Of a stretch of DNA of 46,499 nucleotides, positions 176-46,499 are shown piece after piece. Position 1 is the first letter of the stretch. Each line of letters opens with the position of its first letter. A model generated the notes under the pieces. The model worked only from the letters and a program-made list of their open reading frames with translations, was not told the DNA's origin and searched no databases. Made by a program: the position numbers and the translations under genes. Origin of the DNA: an uncultured Candidatus Saccharibacteria bacterium (GTDB lineage Bacteria; Patescibacteriota; Minisyncoccia; JAHISW01; Tagabacteraceae); the NCBI GenBank assembly GCA_964601305.1, contig CAZRMW010000006.1, positions 1 to 46,499 of the forward strand. The letters are read 5' to 3'.

Positions 176-433
176 ATGTATTACGTTTATATATTACAAA
201 GCAAAAAAGACAATAAATTATATATAGGATACTCTGAAAATTTAAAAAAACGTTTCGAAGTCCACCAAAAAGGTAAAGTAAAATCGACAAAAAACAGATT
301 ACCTCTTGTTTTAATCTACTATGAAGCTTATATTACAAAACTTGATGCAAAAAAGAGAGAAGTTTTTCTAAAATCAGGGTCTGGACATAGATTCATCAAA
401 AAACAATTGGATAATTACTTTAAATCTCAGTAA
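176..433 (+). CDS. GIY-YIG nuclease-domain protein (small UPF0213/COG2827-like). The ORF track starts it at 146, but the likely start is the ATG at 176.
   Basis: MYYVYILQS...KLYIGYSENLKKRFEVHQKG carries the GIY/YIG and R..EH motifs. It is paralogous to the ORF at 23033..23272. The start at 176 is chosen because the paralogue begins MYYTYII. Confidence 0.75.
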   Translation: MYYVYILQSKKDNKLYIGYSENLKKRFEVHQKGKVKSTKNRLPLVLIYYEAYITKLDAKKREVFLKSGSGHRFIKKQLDNYFKSQ

Positions 434-2960: not shown

Positions 2961-3093
2961 ATTGAATTAAGTCTTTAGTTTATTACTAATCTCGACACTG
3001 CCTACCGGCAGGCAGGCTTTTAAATAATAATTATATTATATCAGATTTAAAATAGTCAACAATAGCAACACTTACCGGGTGCACCCGGTAGTA

Positions 3094-9640: not shown

Positions 9641-9802
9641 AGTGTCCTCCTTCTTGCCCCGCCCGGCGGGGGTGAGTTTGTTGCGTTTGGTTTGTTTTTT
9701 GGTTGACCTGGTTAACATGTTTATTATATTATCAATTTGCACCTAAAAAAAGAATAGCACAAACTATTTTATATACAATAATATAAGAGAATCAAGATTT
9801 TG

Positions 9803-10357: not shown

Positions 10358-11485
10358 ATGAAAATATTAGCCATAGAAACATCTTGCGACGAGACGGCAA
10401 TAGCAGTTTTGAAGGTGAAAAGCACGAAGGCGCCGGTTTTTTCGATTTTATCTAATATCGTTTCTTCTCAAGTGAAGCTCCACGCAAAGTGGGGTGGTGT
10501 CGTTCCAGGTTTAGCCAAGCGCGAACACACCAAAAATCTACCAAAAGTTTTAGATAAGGCACTAAAACAAGCAAAGATAAAAACCCCTGAAAAAGAAATA
10601 GATTATGTCGCCGTTACTATTGGCCCTGGACTAGAGTCAGCACTTTGGACAGGAATAAACTTTGGGAGAAATTTAGTAGAAGAGTGGAATAAGCCAATAA
10701 TTCCTGTAAACCATATGGAAGGACATTTGTTTTCTCCGTTTTTGAAAAGTGAAAATTTCAAGATTCCTAAAATTAACTTTCCAGCGATTGCACTGCTAGT
10801 AAGTGGCGGACACACGCAACTTGTGCTAATTAAAAATCTTGGAAAATACAAAATTTTAGGAGAAACTCGCGACGACGCCGCAGGAGAAGTTTTCGACAAA
10901 GTAGCCAGAATGCTAAACCTCGGCTACCCCGGCGGCCCCGCCATTTCTAAACTAACATCTAACCCCACCTCATCTGTTGGAGGTCCGACTTCCAACAGAT
11001 ACGATGTCAAGTTGCCGAGGCCAATGATAAGTGATAATTCTCCAGACGGCGAATTTGATTTTTCTTTTTCTGGTTTGAAAACCGCAGTGCTTTATAAAAT
11101 AAAGGAGTTGAAAAGTTTACCCCGCTCGGCGGGGCTTACACCAAGCATCAAAAAAGAAATCTGCCACGAATTTCAGCAATCCGTAATAGATGTTTTAATT
11201 TCTAAAGCTTTGAAGGCCACAGAAAAATACAAAGCAAAGACTGTCATACTTGGCGGGGGAGTAGTAGTAAACAAAGAGCTTAAAAAACAATTTAAAGAAA
11301 ATCTGAAAGATAAAAATATAGACTTGTTAATTCCAAATATTAAATTTTCTGGAGACAATGCAGCTATGATAGCTTTGGCTTCGTATTTCCAAAAGAAAAA
11401 GCCTGTCCGTTCGACAGGCTCCCTCCAAAAAGGCGGGCAGGCAGGACAAGCTTTGAAAGCAAATGGGAATTTGAGGATTGGTTAA
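10358..11485 (+). CDS. tsaD: tRNA N6-adenosine threonylcarbamoyltransferase TsaD (Kae1/YgjD family). It carries an in-frame GC-palindrome insertion (encoding PRSAGL) and a repeat-derived C-terminal extension.
   Basis: MKILAIETSCDETAIAVL, HMEGH and GGVVVN motifs. Confidence 0.9.
   Translation: MKILAIETSCDETAIAVLKVKSTKAPVFSILSNIVSSQVKLHAKWGGVVPGLAKREHTKNLPKVLDKALKQAKIKTPEKEIDYVAVTIGPGLESALWTGINFGRNLVEEWNKPIIPVNHMEGHLFSPFLKSENFKIPKINFPAIALLVSGGHTQLVLIKNLGKYKILGETRDDAAGEVFDKVARMLNLGYPGGPAISKLTSNPTSSVGGPTSNRYDVKLPRPMISDNSPDGEFDFSFSGLKTAVLYKIKELKSLPRSAGLTPSIKKEICHEFQQSVIDVLISKALKATEKYKAKTVILGGGVVVNKELKKQFKENLKDKNIDLLIPNIKFSGDNAAMIALASYFQKKKPVRSTGSLQKGGQAGQALKANGNLRIG
11439..11478. repeat. Direct repeat A (ggcaRgac...ctttRaaagcaaatgggaatttRag), overlapping the tsaD C-terminus and stop. 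Its partner is at 12565-12599.
   Basis: Read directly. About 32 of 35 nt are identical. Confidence 0.7.
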
Positions 11486-21390: not shown

Positions 21391-22479
21391 TTATTTAAAA
21401 TTTCTTAATGCTAAGCCTATTGCAGTAGGGAAAGATAAAGATTCTCTGTGTTTTATTTCTGGAATATATTTATCAAACGAAAAAATATTTGTCCAAACAT
21501 TTGCAATCTCAATTGGAGTATTTAAACCATAAGACAAATATTCCACCAAACCTCTCATATTAGAATCTCCTCCACAAAGAATAATTTTTTTTATTTTTTT
21601 ATTTTTAAAACCCTGTTCATTAGAATAGCTCTCCCAATAATCCATTACTTGTTTTATTTCATCTTTTATAACAGATATCACTGGGAAAATAGCATTTAAA
21701 ACTGCGTCTCCTTCCGTCTTTTGTAAAACTGTTTGATACTTTATTTTTTCTGCTTCAAAAACACTTATATTTAGATTTTTAGAAATTGCATTATCTATAT
21801 GTCCGCCTGCCACGTTTACTGTAGAGCCAAATTTTACCACTCCGTCTTCTCCTGCCAAAAAACTTGTACGTGTTTTACCAAAATCCACCACCACAACTGC
21901 ATCTTTTTGTTTTTCATTAACTACAGATCTAAAAATCGAATGATTTTCAAGTTCAAAAACAACAGGAAAAAATCCTGCTTTCTCAAAAATTTCTAAATAG
22001 CTTTCAGTAATTTTTTTGGGAAAAGCGCTTAAAACAACTTCTAAAAATTCTCCATTACTTGCCCCGCTCGGCGGGGTTGAATTTACGACTTCAAAATCGT
22101 AAACGACATCTTCTGGAGAAAAAGGTATTAATTCTTCTAGTTGCAATTCTATACTGCTTCTAACTTTGGATAAATCCATTAAAGGAAGTTTAACAACTTT
22201 TATAAAAGCCTTTTCCTCTGGTAAAGAAGCTGCTATGTATTTATTTCCAGTTTCTTCTAAAATTATTTTTAGACTCTTAATAAGAGTTTCTTTGTCTCTT
22301 ATCTCTCCTTTTTCTATAGCGCTTTTTTCTATTTTTTTGCTTCCAAAATTTTTAAGCCTTGTTCCCCATGGACTGTTTTCTAATTCAATATATTTTATGC
22401 TTTTACCAGAAACATCCACTCCAAGAAGTGGGAGTCTTAAATAATCCGGCATAGGAAACAATTTAGAAAAACTTTTCAT
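21391..22479 (-). CDS. pilM: PilM (actin-like type IV pilus assembly ATPase). The start is trimmed to MKSFSK at 22479. It carries an in-frame GC-palindrome insertion (encoding PPSGAS).
   Basis: LLGVDVSGKSIKYIEL and an actin/FtsA fold pattern. A TATAAT box lies 6 nt before the ATG. Confidence 0.75.
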   Translation of the reverse strand: MKSFSKLFPMPDYLRLPLLGVDVSGKSIKYIELENSPWGTRLKNFGSKKIEKSAIEKGEIRDKETLIKSLKIILEETGNKYIAASLPEEKAFIKVVKLPLMDLSKVRSSIELQLEELIPFSPEDVVYDFEVVNSTPPSGASNGEFLEVVLSAFPKKITESYLEIFEKAGFFPVVFELENHSIFRSVVNEKQKDAVVVVDFGKTRTSFLAGEDGVVKFGSTVNVAGGHIDNAISKNLNISVFEAEKIKYQTVLQKTEGDAVLNAIFPVISVIKDEIKQVMDYWESYSNEQGFKNKKIKKIILCGGDSNMRGLVEYLSYGLNTPIEIANVWTNIFSFDKYIPEIKHRESLSFPTAIGLALRNFK

Positions 22480-22544
22480 ACTATTATTATACAACAATAA
22501 TGACCACCCTTGAATAAAAAACACTCTTTGTTATATTTAATAAT

Positions 22545-22946
22545 ATGCTAAGTATTTTCCCAGAACTTTTATCTTACAGCCAAGTGGCGCCATTTATATT
22601 TAGGGTGGTTTTAGCTCTTATTTTTATCGGTACTGGCTACTCAAAACTTTTCAAAGACTTCCAGCAAACTTCTTCTTTTTTTGAATCATTAAAAATAAAG
22701 CCAGGAAAATTTTGGGCAGTTTTTGTTGGAATAGCTGAGTTTGTTTCTGGAGTGCTTCTTCTTGTTGGTTTTCTTACGCAAATTGCCGCACTTTTAATTG
22801 CTATAATTATGTTTGTGGCTATTATAACAGCCAAGAGAGATGAAGGATTTGTGGGTGGGTATGATTTTGATCTTTTAATTTTAGTAGTAGCATTGTCTTT
22901 GTTGGTACTAGGCCCGGGAATATTTTCCATAGACTTACCTTTGTAA
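22545..22946 (+). CDS. DoxX-family membrane protein.
   Basis: Four TM helices with a DoxX-like sequence pattern. Confidence 0.5.
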   Translation: MLSIFPELLSYSQVAPFIFRVVLALIFIGTGYSKLFKDFQQTSSFFESLKIKPGKFWAVFVGIAEFVSGVLLLVGFLTQIAALLIAIIMFVAIITAKRDEGFVGGYDFDLLILVVALSLLVLGPGIFSIDLPL

Positions 22947-22951
22947 AAAAA

Positions 22952-23029
22952 GCCTTCATAGCTCAATTGCCCCGCCGAGCGGGGTAAAGTAGAGCAGCTT
23001 GCCCCGCTCGGCGGGGCGACCTCTTAAGC
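22952..23029 (+). pseudogene. Orphan 5' half of tRNA-Lys (positions 1 to about 38, up to the anticodon loop). It is split by two copies of the GC-rich palindromic repeat.
   Basis: gccttcatagctcaattg + [ccccgccgagcggggtaaa] + gtagagcagct + [tgccccgctcggcggggcga] + cctcttaag. The intact tRNA-Lys at 23277 reads gcctccatagctcaattggtagagcagctccctcttaagg. Outside the inserts there is one mismatch. Confidence 0.8.
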
Positions 23030-23032
23030 AAA

Positions 23033-23272
23033 ATGTATTACACATATATAATAAAAAGCATCGAACACAAATCTTTTTATGTAGGGATAACAAATAATCC
23101 AGAAAAAAGACTGAGAGAACACAATTCTGGCAAGGTTGAGAGTACCAGAACAAAGAAACCTTGGATATTATGGCACATTAGAAAATCAAAAAATTCAAAA
23201 GAAGCGAGAAAAGAAGAAATTTATTTAAAAAAGAAAGACAAAGAGTTCAAAGAAAAATTAAAAAATATTTAA
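23033..23272 (+). CDS. GIY-YIG nuclease-domain protein, paralogous to the one at 176..433.
   Basis: MYYTYIIKSIEHKSFYVGITNNPEKRLREHNSG. Its ATG lies 3 nt after the end of the tRNA-Lys fragment. Confidence 0.8.
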   Translation: MYYTYIIKSIEHKSFYVGITNNPEKRLREHNSGKVESTRTKKPWILWHIRKSKNSKEARKEEIYLKKKDKEFKEKLKNI

Positions 23273-23276
23273 ACAT

Positions 23277-23349
23277 GCCTCCATAGCTCAATTGGTAGAG
23301 CAGCTCCCTCTTAAGGAGTTGGTTCCAGGTTCGAGTCCTGGTGGGGGTA
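23277..23349 (+). tRNA. tRNA-Lys (anticodon CTT).
   Basis: Acceptor gcctcca/tgggggt (two G-U pairs), D-arm agctcaattggtagagc, anticodon loop ctcttaa, T-arm ccagg-ttcgagt-cctgg. Confidence 0.85.
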
Positions 23350-23351
23350 CA

Positions 23352-23551
23352 AAACAGTTTGGCCCCGATGCGTGGCATTGGGGTTTTACTGTTTTGCAGT
23401 TTCAACAGGACGAGAACCGAGGGCTGGCGAAGCGAGCTCCGATGTTACATCGGAGCGACAGCCCGAGTGGGGGTCGAGGGAGTGAGATATTTTTGGAATG
23501 TAATGAACAAAAATATCCACGAGAGTGACCGAGTCCTGGTGGGGGGTACAC
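23352..23551 (+). other. GC-rich structured segment of about 180 nt. It ends in a 21-nt direct repeat of the tRNA-Lys 3' end (cgagtcctggtggggggtaca). Candidate att-site scar and/or small ncRNA.
   Basis: Nested stems read directly, including gctccgatg/catcggagc, gggctg/cagccc and ggcccc/ggggtt. The repeat copies are at 23332-23351 and 23531-23551. Confidence 0.5.
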
Positions 23552-23671
23552 TTCAAATTTTAGCTTGTCAAAACACTTGACCTGCTTTTTTGTATATGTT
23601 AAAAATACCTAGACTAGAAACTTAACCCGTTCGCCTTAGGCGAACAGAACCTTGAAAAGGAGACTGTTGTT

Positions 23672-24298
23672 ATGAATGAATGGTGGATTACCTTAACACA
23701 AATTCAAAAAATGTTTTGGGGAATAGCTATTTTTTCCTCAATATTTTTTACAATTCAAATGATTCTTACTTTTGTTGGCCTTGATGGCCACGGTGATACT
23801 GATTTTGGACATGGTTTTGAAACAGACGGACATACCGGAGATACCCACAGTGATTCAGGTGATGAACATGGACACGATGATGGAAACAGATCTTTTACTT
23901 TTATGGGTTATTTTACCGTAAGAAATCTGGTTGCTTTTTTCCTTGGTTTTTCTTGGGGTGGACTTACTTATATAGACAATGGATTATCAAATGCATGGTC
24001 AATTATTTTGGCCGTGCTTACAGGACTGTTGTTTTCTATTATTATCATGGCCTTATTGAAGGTTTTGTCTACGCTTAAAAATGATGGAACGATGTCACTA
24101 AAAAATGCCATTGGTAAAGAAGGAATTGTCTCAATTCGTATTCCTGCCAACATGGATAAGGCCGGAAAGATCAGTATTTCTTTTCAGAACAGACTGACCG
24201 AACTTGACTCCGTCACGAAAGGAGAGGAAATAAGAAGGGGTCAAAAAATCAAAGTTATAGGAATTTCTGGAACACGACTTCTCGTAGATAAAATTTAG
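23672..24298 (+). CDS. NfeD-like membrane protein (YqiJ/YuaF type). It has an N-terminal TM helix, a His/Asp-rich loop and a C-terminal OB-fold.
   Basis: C-terminal GKEGIVSIRIPANMDKAGKISISFQNRLTELDSVTKGEEIRRGQKIKVIGISGTRLLV matches the NfeD beta-barrel. AAGGAG RBS upstream. About 50% GC. Confidence 0.7.
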   Translation: MNEWWITLTQIQKMFWGIAIFSSIFFTIQMILTFVGLDGHGDTDFGHGFETDGHTGDTHSDSGDEHGHDDGNRSFTFMGYFTVRNLVAFFLGFSWGGLTYIDNGLSNAWSIILAVLTGLLFSIIIMALLKVLSTLKNDGTMSLKNAIGKEGIVSIRIPANMDKAGKISISFQNRLTELDSVTKGEEIRRGQKIKVIGISGTRLLVDKI

Positions 24299-26378: not shown

Positions 26379-26604
26379 ATTTATTTTCTCTAACTTTTCA
26401 CAAGGTACAAAAATATGCGGTTCCGCCCAAGGCGGACAAGCGCGTGTTTTGTACTTTTTATAGTTTTTTTATTTATTCCATACCCAAAAATAAAGTCAAT
26501 ATTGAGTAAATTTCTCAAAACTGCTCTACTAAAATAAATAAACTCGCCAAAGGCGAGTGAACTTTAACAAACAGCCTCGCCAAGCGGGGTAAAGAGGAGG
26601 CAAA

Positions 26605-30554: not shown

Positions 30555-30649
30555 GTTTAGTGTTTAGTTTTCAACTTGTCCCGCTCGGCGGGAATTTAAT
30601 GTTATAAAAGCATTTTTGTGATACTTCGTCAAATTGTTTCATTTGTAAA

Positions 30650-35950: not shown

Positions 35951-38302
35951 TTAGGTTAATTTTCTAAGCGTGCCCCAATTTTTACCAACTAGCACATCTA
36001 CCTCGGTAGTTACTTTTGGTAACACATCTTTTTCCATAGCACTTTCTATAATCGGCACCACTTTTTCTACTATATCATCTTTAATTTCAAAAATTAATTC
36101 ATCATGTACCTGCAAAAGTAGTTTTGCATCACTTTCTAATTTTTTTTCTTTCAAAATCTTGTCTACATCTACCATCGCCACTTTTATAATATCTGCTGCA
36201 GTGCCTTGAATGGGAGCATTTATTGCCATCCTCTCCGCCTCTTTACGAATATACTCAATGGGGGAGCTGGCCTCCGGCAAATACCTTCTTCTTCCAAGAA
36301 GAGTTTCGCTATAACCCTTTTTCCTAACGCTACTCTTTGTGCTTTCCATATATTCTGTTATACCCGGAAAATCATGGAAATATTCATCGTAAAATTTTTG
36401 TGCTTCCTCTTTAGTGCACTCCAAGTTTTTCTTTAGACTATTTATTCCCATACCATAAGCTATGCCGAAGTTTATTATTTTTGCTCGGCGACGCATTTCT
36501 TTTGTTACATCTTCTGGTTTTACATTAAAAACTTCCGAAGCCACTTTTGCATGAATATCTGCTTTGTTTTTAAAAGCGCTTATCAATTTTTTATCTTGGC
36601 TTAAAGACGCCACTATACGAAGCTCTATTTGAGAATAATCAAAAGACACCAAACTCCAACCCCTTGGAGCCACAAAAGCCTTTCTTACTGCGCGCCCGAA
36701 CTCTGTTCGAGTAGGAATATTTTGTAAATTTGGATCTGAAGAAGAAAGCCTACCAGTTGCAGTACCTGTTTGATTAAAAGTAGTGTGCAAACGCCCATCT
36801 TCGCCAACCATACCAGGCAGATTATCTACATATGTAGAAGTGAGCTTAGCAAGCTCACGGTAAGAAAATATTTCTTTTATTATTTCGTGCCTATCTTGTA
36901 TTTTTTCGAGTTCTGAAAATCGAGTGGATATTGCACCTGTACCAGTTTTTCTCATTCCTTTGGGAGAAATTTCTAATTTTTTAAAAAGTACTTCTGATAA
37001 TTGCTTTGGAGATCTTATGTTAAACTCGCCACCGGCTAATTTCCAAATTTTGTTTTGCAAACTGTCTAATTTTTTGTGATACTCTTTGCTTAAATTTTTT
37101 AGAAAATCTACATCTAGTAAAATCCCTTTATCTTGCATACCTTCTAAAATTTTTATTAAAGGAAGCTCTACATCTTCGTATAATTTATTTAATTTATCTT
37201 TTTTAAGTTTATCTAAAATTTTTTCTTTGGCTGTCTCTAAAGATTTTACTCTCATTTCAGACAAGATGTCATTTGTGGAAGGATTTGTTTTTCTAGAGTC
37301 TAGAAGCCAGAAAGCTAACTTTGTTTCATGTTCGACATTGGATGTCGAACAAATGCTAGTTTGGGATATTTTTACATCTCCCGCTGGAATTACTACTTTA
37401 TTTATCAAACTTCTAAATCCATGCTCCATTAAAAAATCTTTTAACTTTTCACTAGAAAAATCTGCATTCCACCTGCTATCTTCTAAAGAAAAATCTACTG
37501 GAATATCTCTTTTGGAAAGTGCTAGTGCCTTACTAAAAAGAGCTTCTTTTTTGTTTTCTTTCAGTAAATTTATTATTCTTGGCTTTATACCAGCTTTTAT
37601 AAATTCTTCTTCACCCTTGTCTAGTTTTTTATAAATATCTTCAAGTGATCCAAGTTTTGAAATTAAAGTTTTAGCTGTTTTTTCCCCAATACCCACCACA
37701 CCAATTATATTATCTGAAGGATCTCCCATAAGCCCCTTGAAGTCGGGGACTAGTTCCGGACCAAACCCATATCTATCTATTACTGCTTTTTCATCATAGA
37801 AAACAGAATCTTTTATACCACGCTTCATTGTATAAATTCTCACACCTAGGCGAATAAGTTGAAGGGTGTCTAAATCTCCAGTAACTACTATTATTTCTAA
37901 ATCTTCTTGCCCCGCTCGGCGGGGTTTTAATTTTTCTACAATAGTCGCCAAAACATCATCTGCTTCAAATCCTTCATGTTCATAGATTGGTACATCTAAA
38001 AGTTCAAGTGCCTCTTTGGCTCTTTCTATTTGTGAACTTAATTCATCGGCCATTTTAGGTCTTTTTGCTTTGTAGGCTTTATAAATTTCGTGCCTAAAAG
38101 TAGGTTTTGGTAAATCAAAACAAGCTGCGATATAGTCTGGCTTAAAATCGTTTATTGTTTTTAAAACTGTTACCAAAAATCCATATAGCGCGCCCGTGGG
38201 CTCTCCTTTTGGGGAAGTGAACCCTGGCATAGCATGAAAAGCGCGGTGCAAAACCGCATGAGAATCTAGTAAAACCAATCTTTTTTTCTTTTTTTCTGCC
38301 AT
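35951..38302 (-). CDS. polA: DNA polymerase I (5'-3' exonuclease plus polymerase domains). It carries an in-frame GC-palindrome insertion encoding PRRAGQ.
   Basis: Motif A DYSQIELRIVA, motif C QVHDELIFE, and an N-terminal FEN-like domain. Confidence 0.9.
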   Translation of the reverse strand: MAEKKKKRLVLLDSHAVLHRAFHAMPGFTSPKGEPTGALYGFLVTVLKTINDFKPDYIAACFDLPKPTFRHEIYKAYKAKRPKMADELSSQIERAKEALELLDVPIYEHEGFEADDVLATIVEKLKPRRAGQEDLEIIVVTGDLDTLQLIRLGVRIYTMKRGIKDSVFYDEKAVIDRYGFGPELVPDFKGLMGDPSDNIIGVVGIGEKTAKTLISKLGSLEDIYKKLDKGEEEFIKAGIKPRIINLLKENKKEALFSKALALSKRDIPVDFSLEDSRWNADFSSEKLKDFLMEHGFRSLINKVVIPAGDVKISQTSICSTSNVEHETKLAFWLLDSRKTNPSTNDILSEMRVKSLETAKEKILDKLKKDKLNKLYEDVELPLIKILEGMQDKGILLDVDFLKNLSKEYHKKLDSLQNKIWKLAGGEFNIRSPKQLSEVLFKKLEISPKGMRKTGTGAISTRFSELEKIQDRHEIIKEIFSYRELAKLTSTYVDNLPGMVGEDGRLHTTFNQTGTATGRLSSSDPNLQNIPTRTEFGRAVRKAFVAPRGWSLVSFDYSQIELRIVASLSQDKKLISAFKNKADIHAKVASEVFNVKPEDVTKEMRRRAKIINFGIAYGMGINSLKKNLECTKEEAQKFYDEYFHDFPGITEYMESTKSSVRKKGYSETLLGRRRYLPEASSPIEYIRKEAERMAINAPIQGTAADIIKVAMVDVDKILKEKKLESDAKLLLQVHDELIFEIKDDIVEKVVPIIESAMEKDVLPKVTTEVDVLVGKNWGTLRKLT
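37906..37926. repeat. GC-rich palindromic element cttgccccgctcggcggggtt, in-frame inside polA. Other copies are at 9654, 11119, 22058, 22970, 23000, 30575 and 40383, with a degenerate copy at 26576.
   Basis: Read directly. A 6-bp GC stem (ccccgc/gcgggg) with a 4-nt centre. Confidence 0.8.
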
Positions 38303-40362: not shown

Positions 40363-42048
40363 ATGACATTAAGAAAAAACATTCCCGCCGAGCGGGACAA
40401 GCAAGAAGAAAAAATACAAATCCTTAAAAGAAAGGAAGAGGAAGATGTTACCCAAATTTTGTCTCAAAAATACGGTATTTCTTATGTAGATCTAAGAAAA
40501 ATGTCTGTAGATTTAGATTATTTAAAACTGATACCAGAAAATAAAGCACGAGAAGGTAAAATTGTAGTGTTTCAAGGTGTAGGCAAAAAAGCACAAATTG
40601 CGGTACAAAATCCAGAACTAGAATCAACAAAAAATATTATAAAAGAACTTTCTCAAGAGGAATACATTCCCCAATTATTTTTATCTTCTCTTTCTGGTCT
40701 CTCAGAGGTTTGGGAAAAATACAAAGAAGTACCTAAATTTGTTGAACTTTCAAAAGGTACTGTAGAAATTTCTTCGGAAAAAATATCAGAGCTTTTGGAA
40801 CAAGATTTTACTGTAGAACACTTGAAAACAATGTTTTTAGAAAACATACAAAGTAAAAAAGAAAGAAGTGTTTCAGATCTTATAGAAATAATTCTTGGGG
40901 GAGCTCTTAAAATGAAGGCTTCAGATGTTCATATTGAACCATTTGAAGATAATGTAAAATTAAGGTTCCGTTTTGATGGAGTGCTTCATGATATTTTGGA
41001 TTTTAAGCTTAAATCTTATAAACTTTTAATTTCTAGGATCAAATTAGTTTCAGAAATGAAATTGAATATAAAACAAAAAGCTCAAGATGGAAGATTTTCT
41101 ATAAAAATAAACGACACTGAAATAGAGGTGAGGTCTTCTATTTTACCTGGGCCATATGGAGAATCAGTGGTTTTAAGAATTCTAAATCCAGAAACAATAG
41201 ATGTAAAATTTGAAAATCTTGGACTGCAAAAAAATCTAGAAGAAATACTTGAAAAAGAAATTAAAAAACCAAACGGTATGATTTTAACAACAGGGCCTAC
41301 TGGATCTGGAAAAACAACCACACTATATACTTTTCTAAAAAAAATAAATAACCCAGAAATAAAAATAATAACAATTGAAGAACCTATAGAATATCATCTT
41401 GAAGGAATTACCCAAACACAAACCAAACCAGAAAAGAATTATACTTTTTCTACTGGTCTTCGAGCAATTGTAAGACAAGACCCAGATGTAATAATGATAG
41501 GTGAAATAAGAGACAAAGAAACTGCTGACACATCCTTAAACGCTGCTCTTACTGGACACCTTGTGTTGTCTACTCTTCATACAAATGATGCTGCCGGCAC
41601 AATCCCACGCTTAATAGAATTAGGTGCTAAAACAGCCGTTATTGCTCCTTCTATAAATATTACCTTAGCACAAAGACTTATAAGAAAGCTTTGTAGTAAT
41701 TGTAAAGTAGCTTATTCACCAACACCAGAGGAAAAAGAAATTTTGGAAAAATTTATAAACACTCTTCCTGAAAGTATAGAAAAACCAAATTTAAAAAACA
41801 TTAAATTATATAAAGCAAACCAGTGCGAAAAATGTAGAAACACAGGGTATAACGGAAGAATAGGTATATTTGAGGCTATTATAGTAGACGAAGAAATGGA
41901 AAAACTTATCCTAAATAACCCATCAACTGTTGAAATAAAAGAAACTGCAAAATCCCAAGGTATTATAGATATACAGCAAGATGCAATTTTAAAAATAATT
42001 GAAGGAATTACTTCTATCGACGAAGTAAAAAGAGTTATTGAAATATAA
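40363..42048 (+). CDS. pilB: Type II/IV secretion ATPase (PilB/GspE family). It carries a GC-palindrome insertion at codons 7-13 (encoding IPAERDK).
   Basis: Walker A GPTGSGKTTTLY, Asp box, His box, and a C-terminal CxxC...CxxC. Confidence 0.85.
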   Translation: MTLRKNIPAERDKQEEKIQILKRKEEEDVTQILSQKYGISYVDLRKMSVDLDYLKLIPENKAREGKIVVFQGVGKKAQIAVQNPELESTKNIIKELSQEEYIPQLFLSSLSGLSEVWEKYKEVPKFVELSKGTVEISSEKISELLEQDFTVEHLKTMFLENIQSKKERSVSDLIEIILGGALKMKASDVHIEPFEDNVKLRFRFDGVLHDILDFKLKSYKLLISRIKLVSEMKLNIKQKAQDGRFSIKINDTEIEVRSSILPGPYGESVVLRILNPETIDVKFENLGLQKNLEEILEKEIKKPNGMILTTGPTGSGKTTTLYTFLKKINNPEIKIITIEEPIEYHLEGITQTQTKPEKNYTFSTGLRAIVRQDPDVIMIGEIRDKETADTSLNAALTGHLVLSTLHTNDAAGTIPRLIELGAKTAVIAPSINITLAQRLIRKLCSNCKVAYSPTPEEKEILEKFINTLPESIEKPNLKNIKLYKANQCEKCRNTGYNGRIGIFEAIIVDEEMEKLILNNPSTVEIKETAKSQGIIDIQQDAILKIIEGITSIDEVKRVIEI

Positions 42049-45180: not shown

Positions 45181-45202
45181 AGTATTTTTTCCTTTCTCAT
45201 TA

Positions 45203-45300
45203 AATTTTCGAAGTCTACCTAAAGACTAATTTAATTATTATTTGTAGTCAAATATAAAACCTACTCTAACTGGGGTGATAGCACTAGTTAGAGTAGGTTT
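45203..45300. repeat. Promoter-like repeat module of 54-65 nt or more, followed by a 14-bp-stem hairpin. A second copy is at 46435..46499, cut off at the window edge.
   Basis: tctacctaaagactaRtttaattattatttgtagtcaaatataaaacctactct is identical in both copies. It contains TTGACT-N17-TAGTCT when read on the minus strand. Confidence 0.6.
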
Positions 45301-46404: not shown

Positions 46405-46499
46405 GGCTTTTGTTTCTCCTTTTCTCTTTTTTGAAACTTTCAAAATCTACCTAAAGACTAGTTTAATTATTATTTGTAGTCAAATATAAAACCTACTCT

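Follow-up and report, generated by a model that had tools for sequence, protein, structure and literature searches.

A minimal GIY-YIG gene between a partial and an intact tRNA-Lys gene in a Candidatus Saccharibacteria contig: a candidate selfish cassette of bacterial tRNA transcription units

Introduction

How does a small nuclease gene come to lie between one part of a tRNA gene and a complete copy of the same gene? This question is raised by a DNA stretch of 46,499 nt from an uncultured Candidatus Saccharibacteria bacterium (GenBank assembly GCA_964601305.1, contig CAZRMW010000006.1; the whole stretch is hereafter called the window), in which an open reading frame (ORF) for a GIY-YIG protein stands between a 5' fragment of tRNA-Lys(CTT) and an intact tRNA-Lys(CTT) gene. 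An earlier inspection, called here the sequence-only reading, had taken the locus for a tRNA-targeting selfish GIY-YIG cassette. In the current study, we consider it fairly probable that the locus is one copy of a widespread, selfish and mobile cassette that consists of the ORF only, resides in tRNA transcription units, and does the host no harm because a part of the tRNA has been duplicated in compensation. This explanation is built on the architecture of the locus, its recurrence, empty sites in relatives, a relocation between tRNA genes, the target-derived duplicated sequence, and purifying selection on the ORF; it further supposes a nuclease activity, a cutting target and an origin of the duplication, all of which are predicted.

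Results

Architecture of the tRNA-Lys/GIY-YIG locus

The 5' fragment (22952-23028) corresponded to nt 1-39 of tRNA-Lys(CTT) with one mismatch and two intervening GC palindromes. It was separated from the ATG of the ORF by the 4 nt caaa, and the 4 nt acat lay between the ORF stop and tRNA position 1. The gapped local alignment of tRNA-Lys with this stretch scored 51, compared with a mean of 14.8 (sd 3.0) and a maximum of 31.6 in 2000 random 141-nt windows, showing that the similarity is beyond chance. ARAGORN and Rfam called the intact tRNA-Lys(CTT), placing its end at 23349 or 23350, and the pseudo-tRNA (22952-23029) received no call by ARAGORN or the covariance model, even at E <= 10. The description given by the sequence-only reading, namely a 5' tRNA-Lys fragment with one mismatch and two palindromes, the ORF and an intact tRNA, was therefore confirmed by the sequence, ARAGORN/Rfam and Pfam. 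The tRNA repeat period was 325 nt (22952 to 23277), and its content was the 240-nt ORF alone. The fragment and the intact tRNA differed by 1 nt, so that the window itself was uninformative on a foreign versus native origin of the fragment.

The locus was base-for-base identical in contigs of independent metagenome assemblies (L001-L004, L179 and L180; loci are designated by L numbers), which were picked by the exact GIY-YIG protein or the exact downstream NfeD protein. An assembly artefact was therefore ruled out. One of these contigs (L001) broke off within the intact tRNA, at its anticodon loop, which is what an assembler meeting a repeat should produce.

The small GIY-YIG protein

The ORF product matched the Pfam GIY-YIG family PF01541 over residues 1-73 of 79 with 60.8 bits (E = 1.6e-16), well above the curated cut-off of 22.6. 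An alignment of 11 relatives showed Y3, Y5, Y16, G18, R26, H30 and E62 to be invariant, and the catalytic Tyr, Gly and Arg and the metal-binding Glu of the GIY-YIG superfamily were thus conserved. When the family profile was compared with solved structures, the best matches were two UPF0213 proteins, 1YWL (EF2693, 5.7e-15) and 1ZG2 (BH0048, 1.2e-12), both end to end over profile positions 2-76, followed by SLX1 (6e-6). No second domain was found in the 79-residue protein by Pfam, NCBIfam and PADLOC searches. The full-length similarity and the lack of an accessory domain correspond to the UPF0213/prokaryotic Slx1-like form, in agreement with a report in which stand-alone Slx1-like domains of prokaryotes were seen as the minimal GIY-YIG form (PMC1564403). 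As the GIY-YIG domain spans 73 of the 79 residues, there is no room for a DNA-binding domain, such as the sequence-specific module with which homing endonucleases recognise a long target.

The curated family library NCBIfam and the defence-system library PADLOC gave no family assignment for the protein. PHROGs returned a single weak match ('homing endonuclease with GIY-YIG motif'), and the family had one weak match in a phage collection and none in a plasmid collection. The ratio of non-synonymous to synonymous substitution rates (dN/dS) between cassette ORFs was 0.09-0.20, with dS ranging from 0.6 to saturation. Judged from these low ratios, the high dS and the invariant catalytic residues, the ORF is under purifying selection, indicating a functional gene and old cassettes.

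Recurrence of the arrangement in other genomes

The closest ORF homologues, which were 65-73% identical, occurred in other genomic neighbourhoods: L005-L010 between tRNA-Arg and rpsO, and L011, L012 and L013 with dnaJ on one side and a gene for an aminoacyl-tRNA synthetase on the other. An intact tRNA-Lys (CTT or TTT) followed 4-27 nt after their ORF stop, and a 5' fragment of the same tRNA-Lys, ending at nt 26-31 and thus short of the anticodon, lay upstream. Although tRNA-Lys sequences differ among these genomes, the acceptor-strand part of the fragment was that of the local tRNA in every case. A further ORF, 68% identical (L095), had tRNA-Phe as its partner.

For the family-wide survey, one genome per species and JGI metagenomes were scanned with the alignment of ORF products, the ORFs being re-found by profile and the tRNAs by ARAGORN. 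At 92 of the 160 resulting loci a tRNA lay within 100 nt of the ORF, and the tRNA density in this zone was 24 times the value for the remainder of these loci. Adjacent tRNA and ORF were co-oriented in 104 of 105 cases (p = 5e-30), and tRNAs of all kinds served as partners. The carriers included many Patescibacteria lineages, Bacteroidota (Cyclobacteriaceae, Fulvivirgaceae and Saprospiraceae), Ignavibacteria, Dehalococcoidia and others; Fulvivirgaceae bacterium JP3-4 (L092) and Fulvivirga lutimaris KCTC 42720 (L032) are among them.

Two mirror layouts were observed. A 5' fragment (position 1 to x, x = 23-63) is followed by the ORF and the intact tRNA, as in the window, or the intact tRNA is followed by the ORF and a 3' fragment (position y to the end, y = 7-55); 5' duplications were as common as 3' duplications. 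A copy of the same tRNA across the ORF, with a score of at least 39, was found in about 50 of 110 ORF/tRNA pairs, the null from mismatched pairs having a mean of 24.5, a 95th percentile of 35 and a 99th percentile of 44. Over 25-87 nt, many partial copies showed 100% identity with the intact gene. A partial copy occurred within 600 nt for 52% of ORF-adjacent tRNAs, compared with 14% of the remaining tRNAs of these loci (Fisher p = 3.5e-7). The fragments were about 94% identical to the neighbouring tRNA despite the age of the cassettes, which points to repeated re-creation, gene conversion or constraint.

Fragments usually abutted the ORF, starting -3 to +6 nt from the stop codon, and the stop is therefore often supplied by the tRNA. 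Many ORFs had no stop codon of their own, and the TAG of GGTAGAGC in the D-arm, U8-A9-G10, or the TAA of an anticodon loop served instead (L095 at 2504-2764, L096, L114 and L158); a 9-nt overlap of ORF and tRNA was seen at eight loci (e.g., L159, L144 and L157). Tandem arrays with repeats that were 100% identical were present in L075 and in L150, where the order was tRNA, ORF, tRNA, ORF and fragment. In L140 (2501-3398), ORFs lay on both sides of one tRNA-Arg: the upstream ORF overlapped the first bases of the tRNA, and each of two downstream ORFs had a trailing fragment.

Empty sites and relocation between tRNA genes

Relatives with an empty site were reached through DoxX homologues. In L173, the upstream synteny was that of the window (tRNA-Phe, tRNA-Val, tRNA-Arg, pilus genes, PilM and DoxX), and an intact tRNA-Lys(CTT) lay about 500 nt after DoxX. 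The intact tRNA-Lys(CTT) began 12 nt past the DoxX stop in L175 and was also found downstream in L177. None of these three loci contained the GIY-YIG ORF or the tRNA-Lys fragment, and presence and absence at a conserved site, a property of homing genes, was thus found through distant relatives. The orphan fragment of the window begins 5 nt past the DoxX stop, the same place as the tRNA start in L175, and therefore marks the original 5' end of tRNA-Lys. Just upstream of its DoxX region, L175 also carries (1-1394) a reverse transcriptase gene beside a bAvd-like gene, a pair typical of diversity-generating retroelements according to Pfam labels.

The pair L052 and L074 was informative on movement. 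Their ORFs share 83% amino-acid identity, the partner being tRNA-Thr(TGT) in L052 and tRNA-Lys(TTT) in L074. The shared sequence extends from the right half of the D-loop hairpin to the ORF stop, and its first 47 nt, from the leader to the first ORF codons, are 100% identical; the first 17 nt of the fragment and the entire intact tRNA are of the local type at both loci. This pair shows a relocation of the cassette between tRNA genes. Because both loci have a local intact tRNA and a fragment whose distal part is local too, the alignment likewise shows that, for this move, the duplicated tRNA sequence came from the target, or was homogenised afterwards, and not from the donor. Campbell-type integration of an excised circle predicts a chimeric acceptor stem, which was not seen.

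The core of the sequence-only reading, a tRNA-targeting selfish cassette, was thus upheld by recurrence, tRNA association, partial copies, empty sites and the L052/L074 pair, and some details of its history were not. A replacement 5' half brought by the cassette disagrees with the local sequence in L052 and L074, and the junction of the cassette may lie in the D-loop (nt 17/18) rather than in the anticodon loop, where the insertion had been placed.

GC palindromes in the fragment and in the window

The two copies of CCCCGCCGAGCGGGG in the 5' fragment (22970-22984 and 23002-23016) have opposite orientations and pair with each other; the resulting stem of some 20 bp lies shortly before the ORF start (RNA fold -49.4 kcal/mol, z = -6.9). 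In all homologous cassettes that were compared (the window, L005, L011, L012/L013, L074, L052 and L095), a palindrome of the consensus CCCCGCC-n-GGCGGGG-T(G/A)AA, followed by GTAGAGCAG, occupied the same position in the D-loop, although the synonymous sites of these ORFs were near saturation. The second palindrome was found only in this genome among the same cassettes. Since the D-loop palindrome is common to homologous cassettes, the comparison indicates that it is no late coloniser of an orphaned half, as had been supposed, and is either a part of the cassette or a recurrent site-specific insertion. Among 33 scored insertions of 15-70 nt in pseudo-tRNAs (four entries came from redundant loci), 25 were in D, anticodon or T loops (p = 9e-8).

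Two palindrome families were distinguished, P1 (CCTGCCTGCCGGCAGGCAGG, 20 nt) and P2 (CCCCGCC-n-GGCGGGG, the type of the window). The link between palindromes and cassettes is statistically strong, and candidate roles of the palindromes are a cassette end, a nuclease site, an interruption of the direct repeats that prevents deletion of the ORF, and a hairpin protecting the mRNA end that is left once the tRNA is excised from the transcript.

The window contained 10 matches to the CCCCGCCGAGCGGGG-type palindrome, compared with 0.01 expected. One copy (22062-22076) lies in frame in a PilM-like gene (21391-22524, minus strand) as a 5-residue insertion, TPPSG, which the L173 orthologue lacks; palindromes therefore also insert into coding sequence with the frame intact. 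Six more family copies (11120-11134, 37910-37924, 40383-40397, 9657-9671, 26575-26589 and 30579-30593) are usually flanked by CTTG on one side and by a T-rich stretch or TAAA/TGAA on the other. By position, three of them fall in the mechanically called ORFs 10358-11485, 35951-38302 and 40363-42048 (the last near the start), and the remaining three are apparently intergenic, one just upstream of a ribosome-binding site. A near-copy of CCTGCCTGCCGGCAGGCAGG with 3 mismatches (2997-3016) lies distant from any GIY-YIG gene, just upstream of a small minus-strand ORF (2682-2960) that resembles, by eye, an HU-type DNA-binding protein.

Downstream hairpin, spacer and 3' tRNA-Lys fragment

The hairpin directly after the intact tRNA-Lys (Table 1) is probably the end of the transcription unit, and the stretch 23351-23552 folds far better than shuffled sequences (z = -6.2). 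Beyond it, 179 nt downstream of the intact gene, we found a 3' tRNA-Lys fragment that the sequence-only reading had overlooked; it showed 19 of 19 matches plus one inserted G. A far-side fragment beyond the intact tRNA was present in 17 of 57 surveyed loci, a pattern that the fragment of the window fits, and L005 likewise has a 3' fragment behind GC hairpins downstream of its intact tRNA. The fragment was probably left by a second insertion, now dead, on the far side of this tRNA. The GC-rich spacer before it is probably a hairpin cluster inside a decayed downstream tRNA copy, judged by comparison with L005, L074 and L140.

No GIY remnant was detected in 23351-23529 by hmmsearch in six frames, and no copies of this stretch were found elsewhere, leaving a decayed GIY ORF or a repeated element unsupported. 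An upstream extension of the 3' fragment into the spacer was also rejected, as colinear matches were no better than in shuffled controls (p = 0.88). In L074, a second, near-full tRNA-Lys copy (positions 7-76) lies at about 2850-2960, downstream of the intact tRNA-Lys; it has palindromes in the D-loop and T-loop, and no ORF stands between it and the intact gene.

Other features of the window

The second GIY-YIG gene of the window (Table 1) had been cited in support of the cassette because of the adjacent tRNA-Gly. No convincing tRNA-Gly fragment was found near it: a 10-nt match upstream (p of about 0.02) and an 8-nt match downstream (p of about 0.23) were not accepted. The former is an exact match to the tRNA-Gly D-arm (GTGGTAAAAT) at 135-144, in a hairpin-rich spacer (74-175), and it could be, with marginal significance, all that is left of a pseudo-tRNA-Gly.

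Two pairs of intergenic direct repeats, 29794-29850/30070-30126 (57 nt, 93% identity) and 30019-30083/30593-30657 (65 nt, 89% identity), suggest duplicated gene ends or a small repeated unit, and the first pair includes a GC hairpin (GCCCCGGCTATTGCCGAAGGC) between A and T runs. The last nucleotides of the window belong to an 80-nt direct repeat with 88% identity (45188-45267 and 46420-46499, 1.2 kb apart). A 33-nt inverted repeat (42068-42100/42221-42253, 91% complementary) encloses 120 nt.

Table 1. Positions of the features at and around the tRNA-Lys/GIY-YIG locus in the window.
Feature	Positions	Strand	Remarks
DoxX-family gene	22545-22946		Pfam; stop codon directly precedes the tRNA-Lys/GIY-YIG locus
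Pseudo-tRNA-Lys segment a, GCCTTCATAGCTCAATTG	22952-22969	+	tRNA nt 1-18 (acceptor 5' strand, D-stem/D-loop); 1 mismatch, C5 to T
GC palindrome 1, CCCCGCCGAGCGGGG + TAAA	22970-22988	+	within the D-loop of the pseudo-tRNA-Lys
Pseudo-tRNA-Lys segment b, GTAGAGCAGCT	22989-22999	+	tRNA nt 19-29
GC palindrome 2, inverse CCCCGCCGAGCGGGG with short flanks	23000-23019	+	anticodon stem, 5' strand
Pseudo-tRNA-Lys segment c, CCTCTTAAG	23020-23028	+	tRNA nt 31-39 (anticodon loop with CTT)
GIY-YIG ORF	23033-23272	+	79 aa, single domain, Slx1/UPF0213-like
Intact tRNA-Lys(CTT)	23277-23350	+	ARAGORN; Rfam tRNA 68.9 bits, full length
Terminator-like hairpin and T-run	23351-23395	+	stem 23361-23385; directly after tRNA-Lys
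GC-rich, strongly structured non-coding spacer	23396-23529	+	
3' pseudo-fragment of tRNA-Lys	23530-23549	+	nt 56-74 (3' part of T-loop, T-stem, acceptor 3' strand)
Second GIY-YIG gene	176-433	+	34% identity to the first; 103 nt downstream of tRNA-Gly(TCC) (1-73), co-oriented

Discussion

A proposed route of insertion

If the locus is a selfish cassette, the cassette would comprise little beyond a minimal GIY-YIG gene with a product of about 80-90 aa, placed within a few nt of an intact tRNA end and with a partial copy of the same tRNA on its other side. Because the duplication preserves a complete tRNA, such an insertion would be cheap for the host, and the ORF would be able to use the host promoter and terminator, here probably those of a DoxX/tRNA-Lys unit ending at the hairpin 23361-23385. 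Originally, tRNA-Lys(CTT) would have stood directly behind DoxX; its first 18-39 nt would now form the orphan 22952-23028, with the ORF between the orphan and the working tRNA-Lys gene. The lack of a DNA-binding domain, the kinship with the structure-specific SLX1 and the positions of the junctions suggest that the nuclease breaks the DNA of tRNA genes at structure-defined points, namely the ends and loops of the cloverleaf. Repair would then copy the cassette in and duplicate target sequence, and the tRNA-derived direct repeats might later allow homologous exchange, tandem amplification and precise loss.

Several points weigh against this explanation. DNA cleavage by the protein and its substrate are predictions from sequence. 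The intact tRNA-Lys still adjoins the ORF, and the insertion has thus not destroyed its target site as in homing, so that a homing immunity by simple target destruction is inapplicable. To our knowledge, a duplication of 17-60 nt that starts exactly at a tRNA end has no established enzymatic precedent. The empty-site genomes are fairly distant (DoxX 58-66% identical), with none closer in the databases, and no within-species presence/absence polymorphism was found, all contigs of the strain (found via the exact NfeD) carrying the identical cassette. About 40% of the surveyed family members had no tRNA within 100 nt, and about half of the tRNA-adjacent members had no detectable fragment. A mosaic test, which compared whether the distal part of the fragments is more local-like than the proximal part, gave a weak signal (5.2% versus 7.2% mismatches). 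Finally, L011 and L012/L013 share the same context and cassette at a dS of about 0.8, indicating that the cassette has been kept vertically for a long time under purifying selection. Such retention is unusual in a homing gene that is selfish and nothing else, and it agrees with a host function.

Alternative explanations

The alternative suggested by this retention, which we consider unlikely, is that the host uses the small GIY-YIG protein as an enzyme of its own, domesticated or ordinary, and transcribes its gene together with tRNAs. The protein might act as a processing, repair or quality-control nuclease for tRNA genes or their transcripts, the fragments being by-products of local recombination. 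The low dN/dS (0.09-0.20), the long persistence in one context (L011 versus L012/L013) and the near absence of the family from phage and plasmid collections agree with this explanation, as does the co-expression implied by the strict co-orientation and the overlap of ORF stop and tRNA. A prokaryotic Slx1-like domain fused to the tRNA methylase TrmH has also been read as a link to RNA metabolism (PMC1564403). However, a host enzyme fits poorly with the patchy distribution of the ORF, which is absent at the same tRNA in L173, L175 and L177, and with the many partner tRNA species, one cassette lineage having switched from tRNA-Lys to tRNA-Thr. The tandem ORF/fragment arrays in L075, L150 and L140, the partial tRNA duplications specifically tied to the ORF, and the lack of an NCBIfam or PADLOC family assignment also argue against a host enzyme.

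A second group of ideas gives the palindromes a leading part. It is possible, although doubtful, that the minimal GIY-YIG gene and the GC palindrome are two parts of one prokaryotic mobile element of a new kind. A structure-specific nuclease that itself lacks a DNA-binding domain would then recognise hairpin or cloverleaf DNA and cut tRNA genes at loops and stem bases, its self-insertion would yield long target duplications starting exactly at the tRNA end, and the scattered short palindromes, including in-frame ones in protein genes, would be non-autonomous copies.

Close to this is the idea that the palindrome and the ORF are an autonomous element with hairpin ends, with the GIY-YIG protein as its nuclease or 'transposase', the solo palindromes as non-autonomous derivatives, and tRNA loops favoured since tRNA-gene DNA can form a cloverleaf. 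Taken as a whole, we judge it improbable. Within 60 nt of ORFs, P1 was enriched 33-fold and P2 43-fold, and P1 was letter-perfect beside ORFs sharing only 30-77% identity. The left limit of the sequence shared by L052 and L074 is the D-loop hairpin, the insertions are located in loops, and P2 is dispersed in the window far beyond expectation, including the in-frame insertion in PilM. Against these observations, no GC hairpin was present in the ORF flanks at 76 of 161 loci, and several Bacteroidota cassettes (L075, L081 and L085) had clean fragments without palindromes. In several loci (L159, L105 and L030), local-type tRNA sequence goes on past the palindrome towards the ORF, which leaves the palindrome internal to the fragment. 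That nearly half of the loci are hairpin-free and that tRNA sequence goes on in this way both speak against the palindrome as simply the end of the cassette. Moreover, the palindrome type does not track the ORF clade and may therefore track the host lineage instead, and no second hairpin was seen at the other end of the ORF.

Duplication of a part of a tRNA gene, with restoration of a complete copy, is common among integrative elements. The fragments could accordingly be read as attL/attR-type leftovers of integrase islands or prophages in tRNA-Lys with the GIY-YIG gene as surviving cargo, and the 3' fragment 23530-23549 does run from the T-loop to the 3' end, as att cores usually do. We nevertheless regard this origin as very improbable: the 325-nt repeat period holds the ORF alone, no integrase gene was found between or beside the tRNA-Lys repeats, the ORF-only content recurs at about 50 loci, 5' duplications are as frequent as 3' ones, and the fragments abut the ORF within -3 to +6 nt.

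The weakest alternative, that the 5' piece is an exon of a tRNA-Lys split by an ORF-bearing group I intron or one half of a split tRNA of the kind described for Patescibacteria, draws on the frequency of group I introns in the tRNA anticodon loops of Patescibacteria (PMC13011429) and on the end of the 5' fragment just past the anticodon loop, and was rejected as having hardly any probability left, since no intron family was detected at E <= 10 in 22500-24000 or at the gathering score across the window, a high-scoring tRNA-Lys that is complete on its own follows the ORF with no separate 3' exon (nt 40-76), the fragment is broken by palindromes in the D-loop and anticodon stem, and the fragments of relatives end at nt 26-31, before the anticodon.

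Comparison with known systems

Returning to the selfish cassette, the closest parallels were found in fungal mitochondria, where mobile endonuclease ORFs (mORFs) create gene hybrids, for example in atp6 of Allomyces macrogynus and in atp6, atp9, cox2 and nad3 of Glomus (PMC3630166). In both systems, a free-standing endonuclease ORF (of the GIY-YIG type in atp9) is nested in a conserved gene, of which one functional copy persists thanks to a duplicated segment, and the displaced piece stays as a fragment by the ORF; the mitochondrial ORFs are also co-transcribed with the host gene. Unlike the present cassettes, however, mORFs lie in protein-coding genes, only the 3' (C-terminal) end is duplicated, and the inserted segment is foreign, the native one being displaced. 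In the informative pair L052/L074, the sequence that was duplicated is local: the distal fragment has the local type, and so has the intact tRNA. The present cassettes further differ in their location in bacterial chromosomal tRNA genes, in having 5' and 3' versions, in the nuclease of about 80 aa, and in the GC palindromes.

The phage T4 SegB is a GIY-YIG homing endonuclease encoded in a tRNA gene cluster, which cleaves the tRNA gene region and drives its own inheritance, and it has been linked in a recent report to segmental amplification of tRNA loci (PMC2330249; PMC13096335). SegB and other Seg proteins share with the present family the GIY-YIG catalytic domain and a gene position among tRNA genes. 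SegB is a phage protein and a demonstrated site-specific endonuclease, whereas the present family is chromosomal and nearly absent from phage records, and no flanking partial tRNA duplications are described for SegB. It is also larger than the present protein and has a DNA-binding part.

The UPF0213/YhbQ/prokaryotic Slx1-like proteins (1YWL and 1ZG2; PMC1564403) belong to the same protein family and have the same single-domain minimal form; their function is not established, and no link of UPF0213/YhbQ-like proteins to tRNA gene duplications was found in the open-access literature. Tyrosine-integrase islands and prophages resemble the cassettes in the insertion into a tRNA gene, the restored intact tRNA and the displaced partial copy. 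The cassettes differ in having no integrase, in the element size of about 0.3 kb, in the common 5'-part duplications, and in a nuclease in place of a recombinase. In the rRNA genes of Candidate Phyla Radiation (CPR) bacteria, GIY-YIG ORFs occur in non-intron insertions at the tops or bases of stem-loops (PMC11270868). These share the bacterial group and the location of GIY-YIG ORFs within structured-RNA genes, but they interrupt rRNA genes, and that study describes neither tRNA genes nor compensating duplications nor palindromes.

As to the palindromes, the present ones resemble REP/BIME with their RAYT transposases and the Rickettsia palindromic elements: they are short, GC-rich and dispersed, some stand in frame in protein genes (PilM), and on one reading they are tied to a dedicated nuclease gene. 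In contrast, the units described here are 15-20 nt long and concentrated in the loops of pseudo-tRNAs, and the neighbouring nuclease is GIY-YIG and not HUH (RAYT). Full-text searches of the open-access literature found no account of GIY-YIG genes lying within tRNA duplications in bacteria, and this type of cassette is apparently undescribed.

Implications

If the explanation as a selfish cassette is correct, the tRNA genes of many bacteria would host extremely small selfish genes of about 250 bp that keep one tRNA copy whole, a class seen especially in the small genomes of Patescibacteria and also in Bacteroidota, Ignavibacteria and others. The repeated tRNA halves have a practical side, since they break assemblies, as at the end of the L001 contig, and can mislead tRNA annotation. 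The explanation would account for the orphan tRNA halves and the hairpin-riddled pseudo-tRNAs of these genomes, and it would extend a strategy of fungal mitochondrial protein genes to bacterial RNA genes. The uncharacterised UPF0213/YhbQ-like proteins would for the first time be placed in a biological context, and attention would be drawn to a compact nuclease whose targeting possibly relies on DNA structure instead of sequence.

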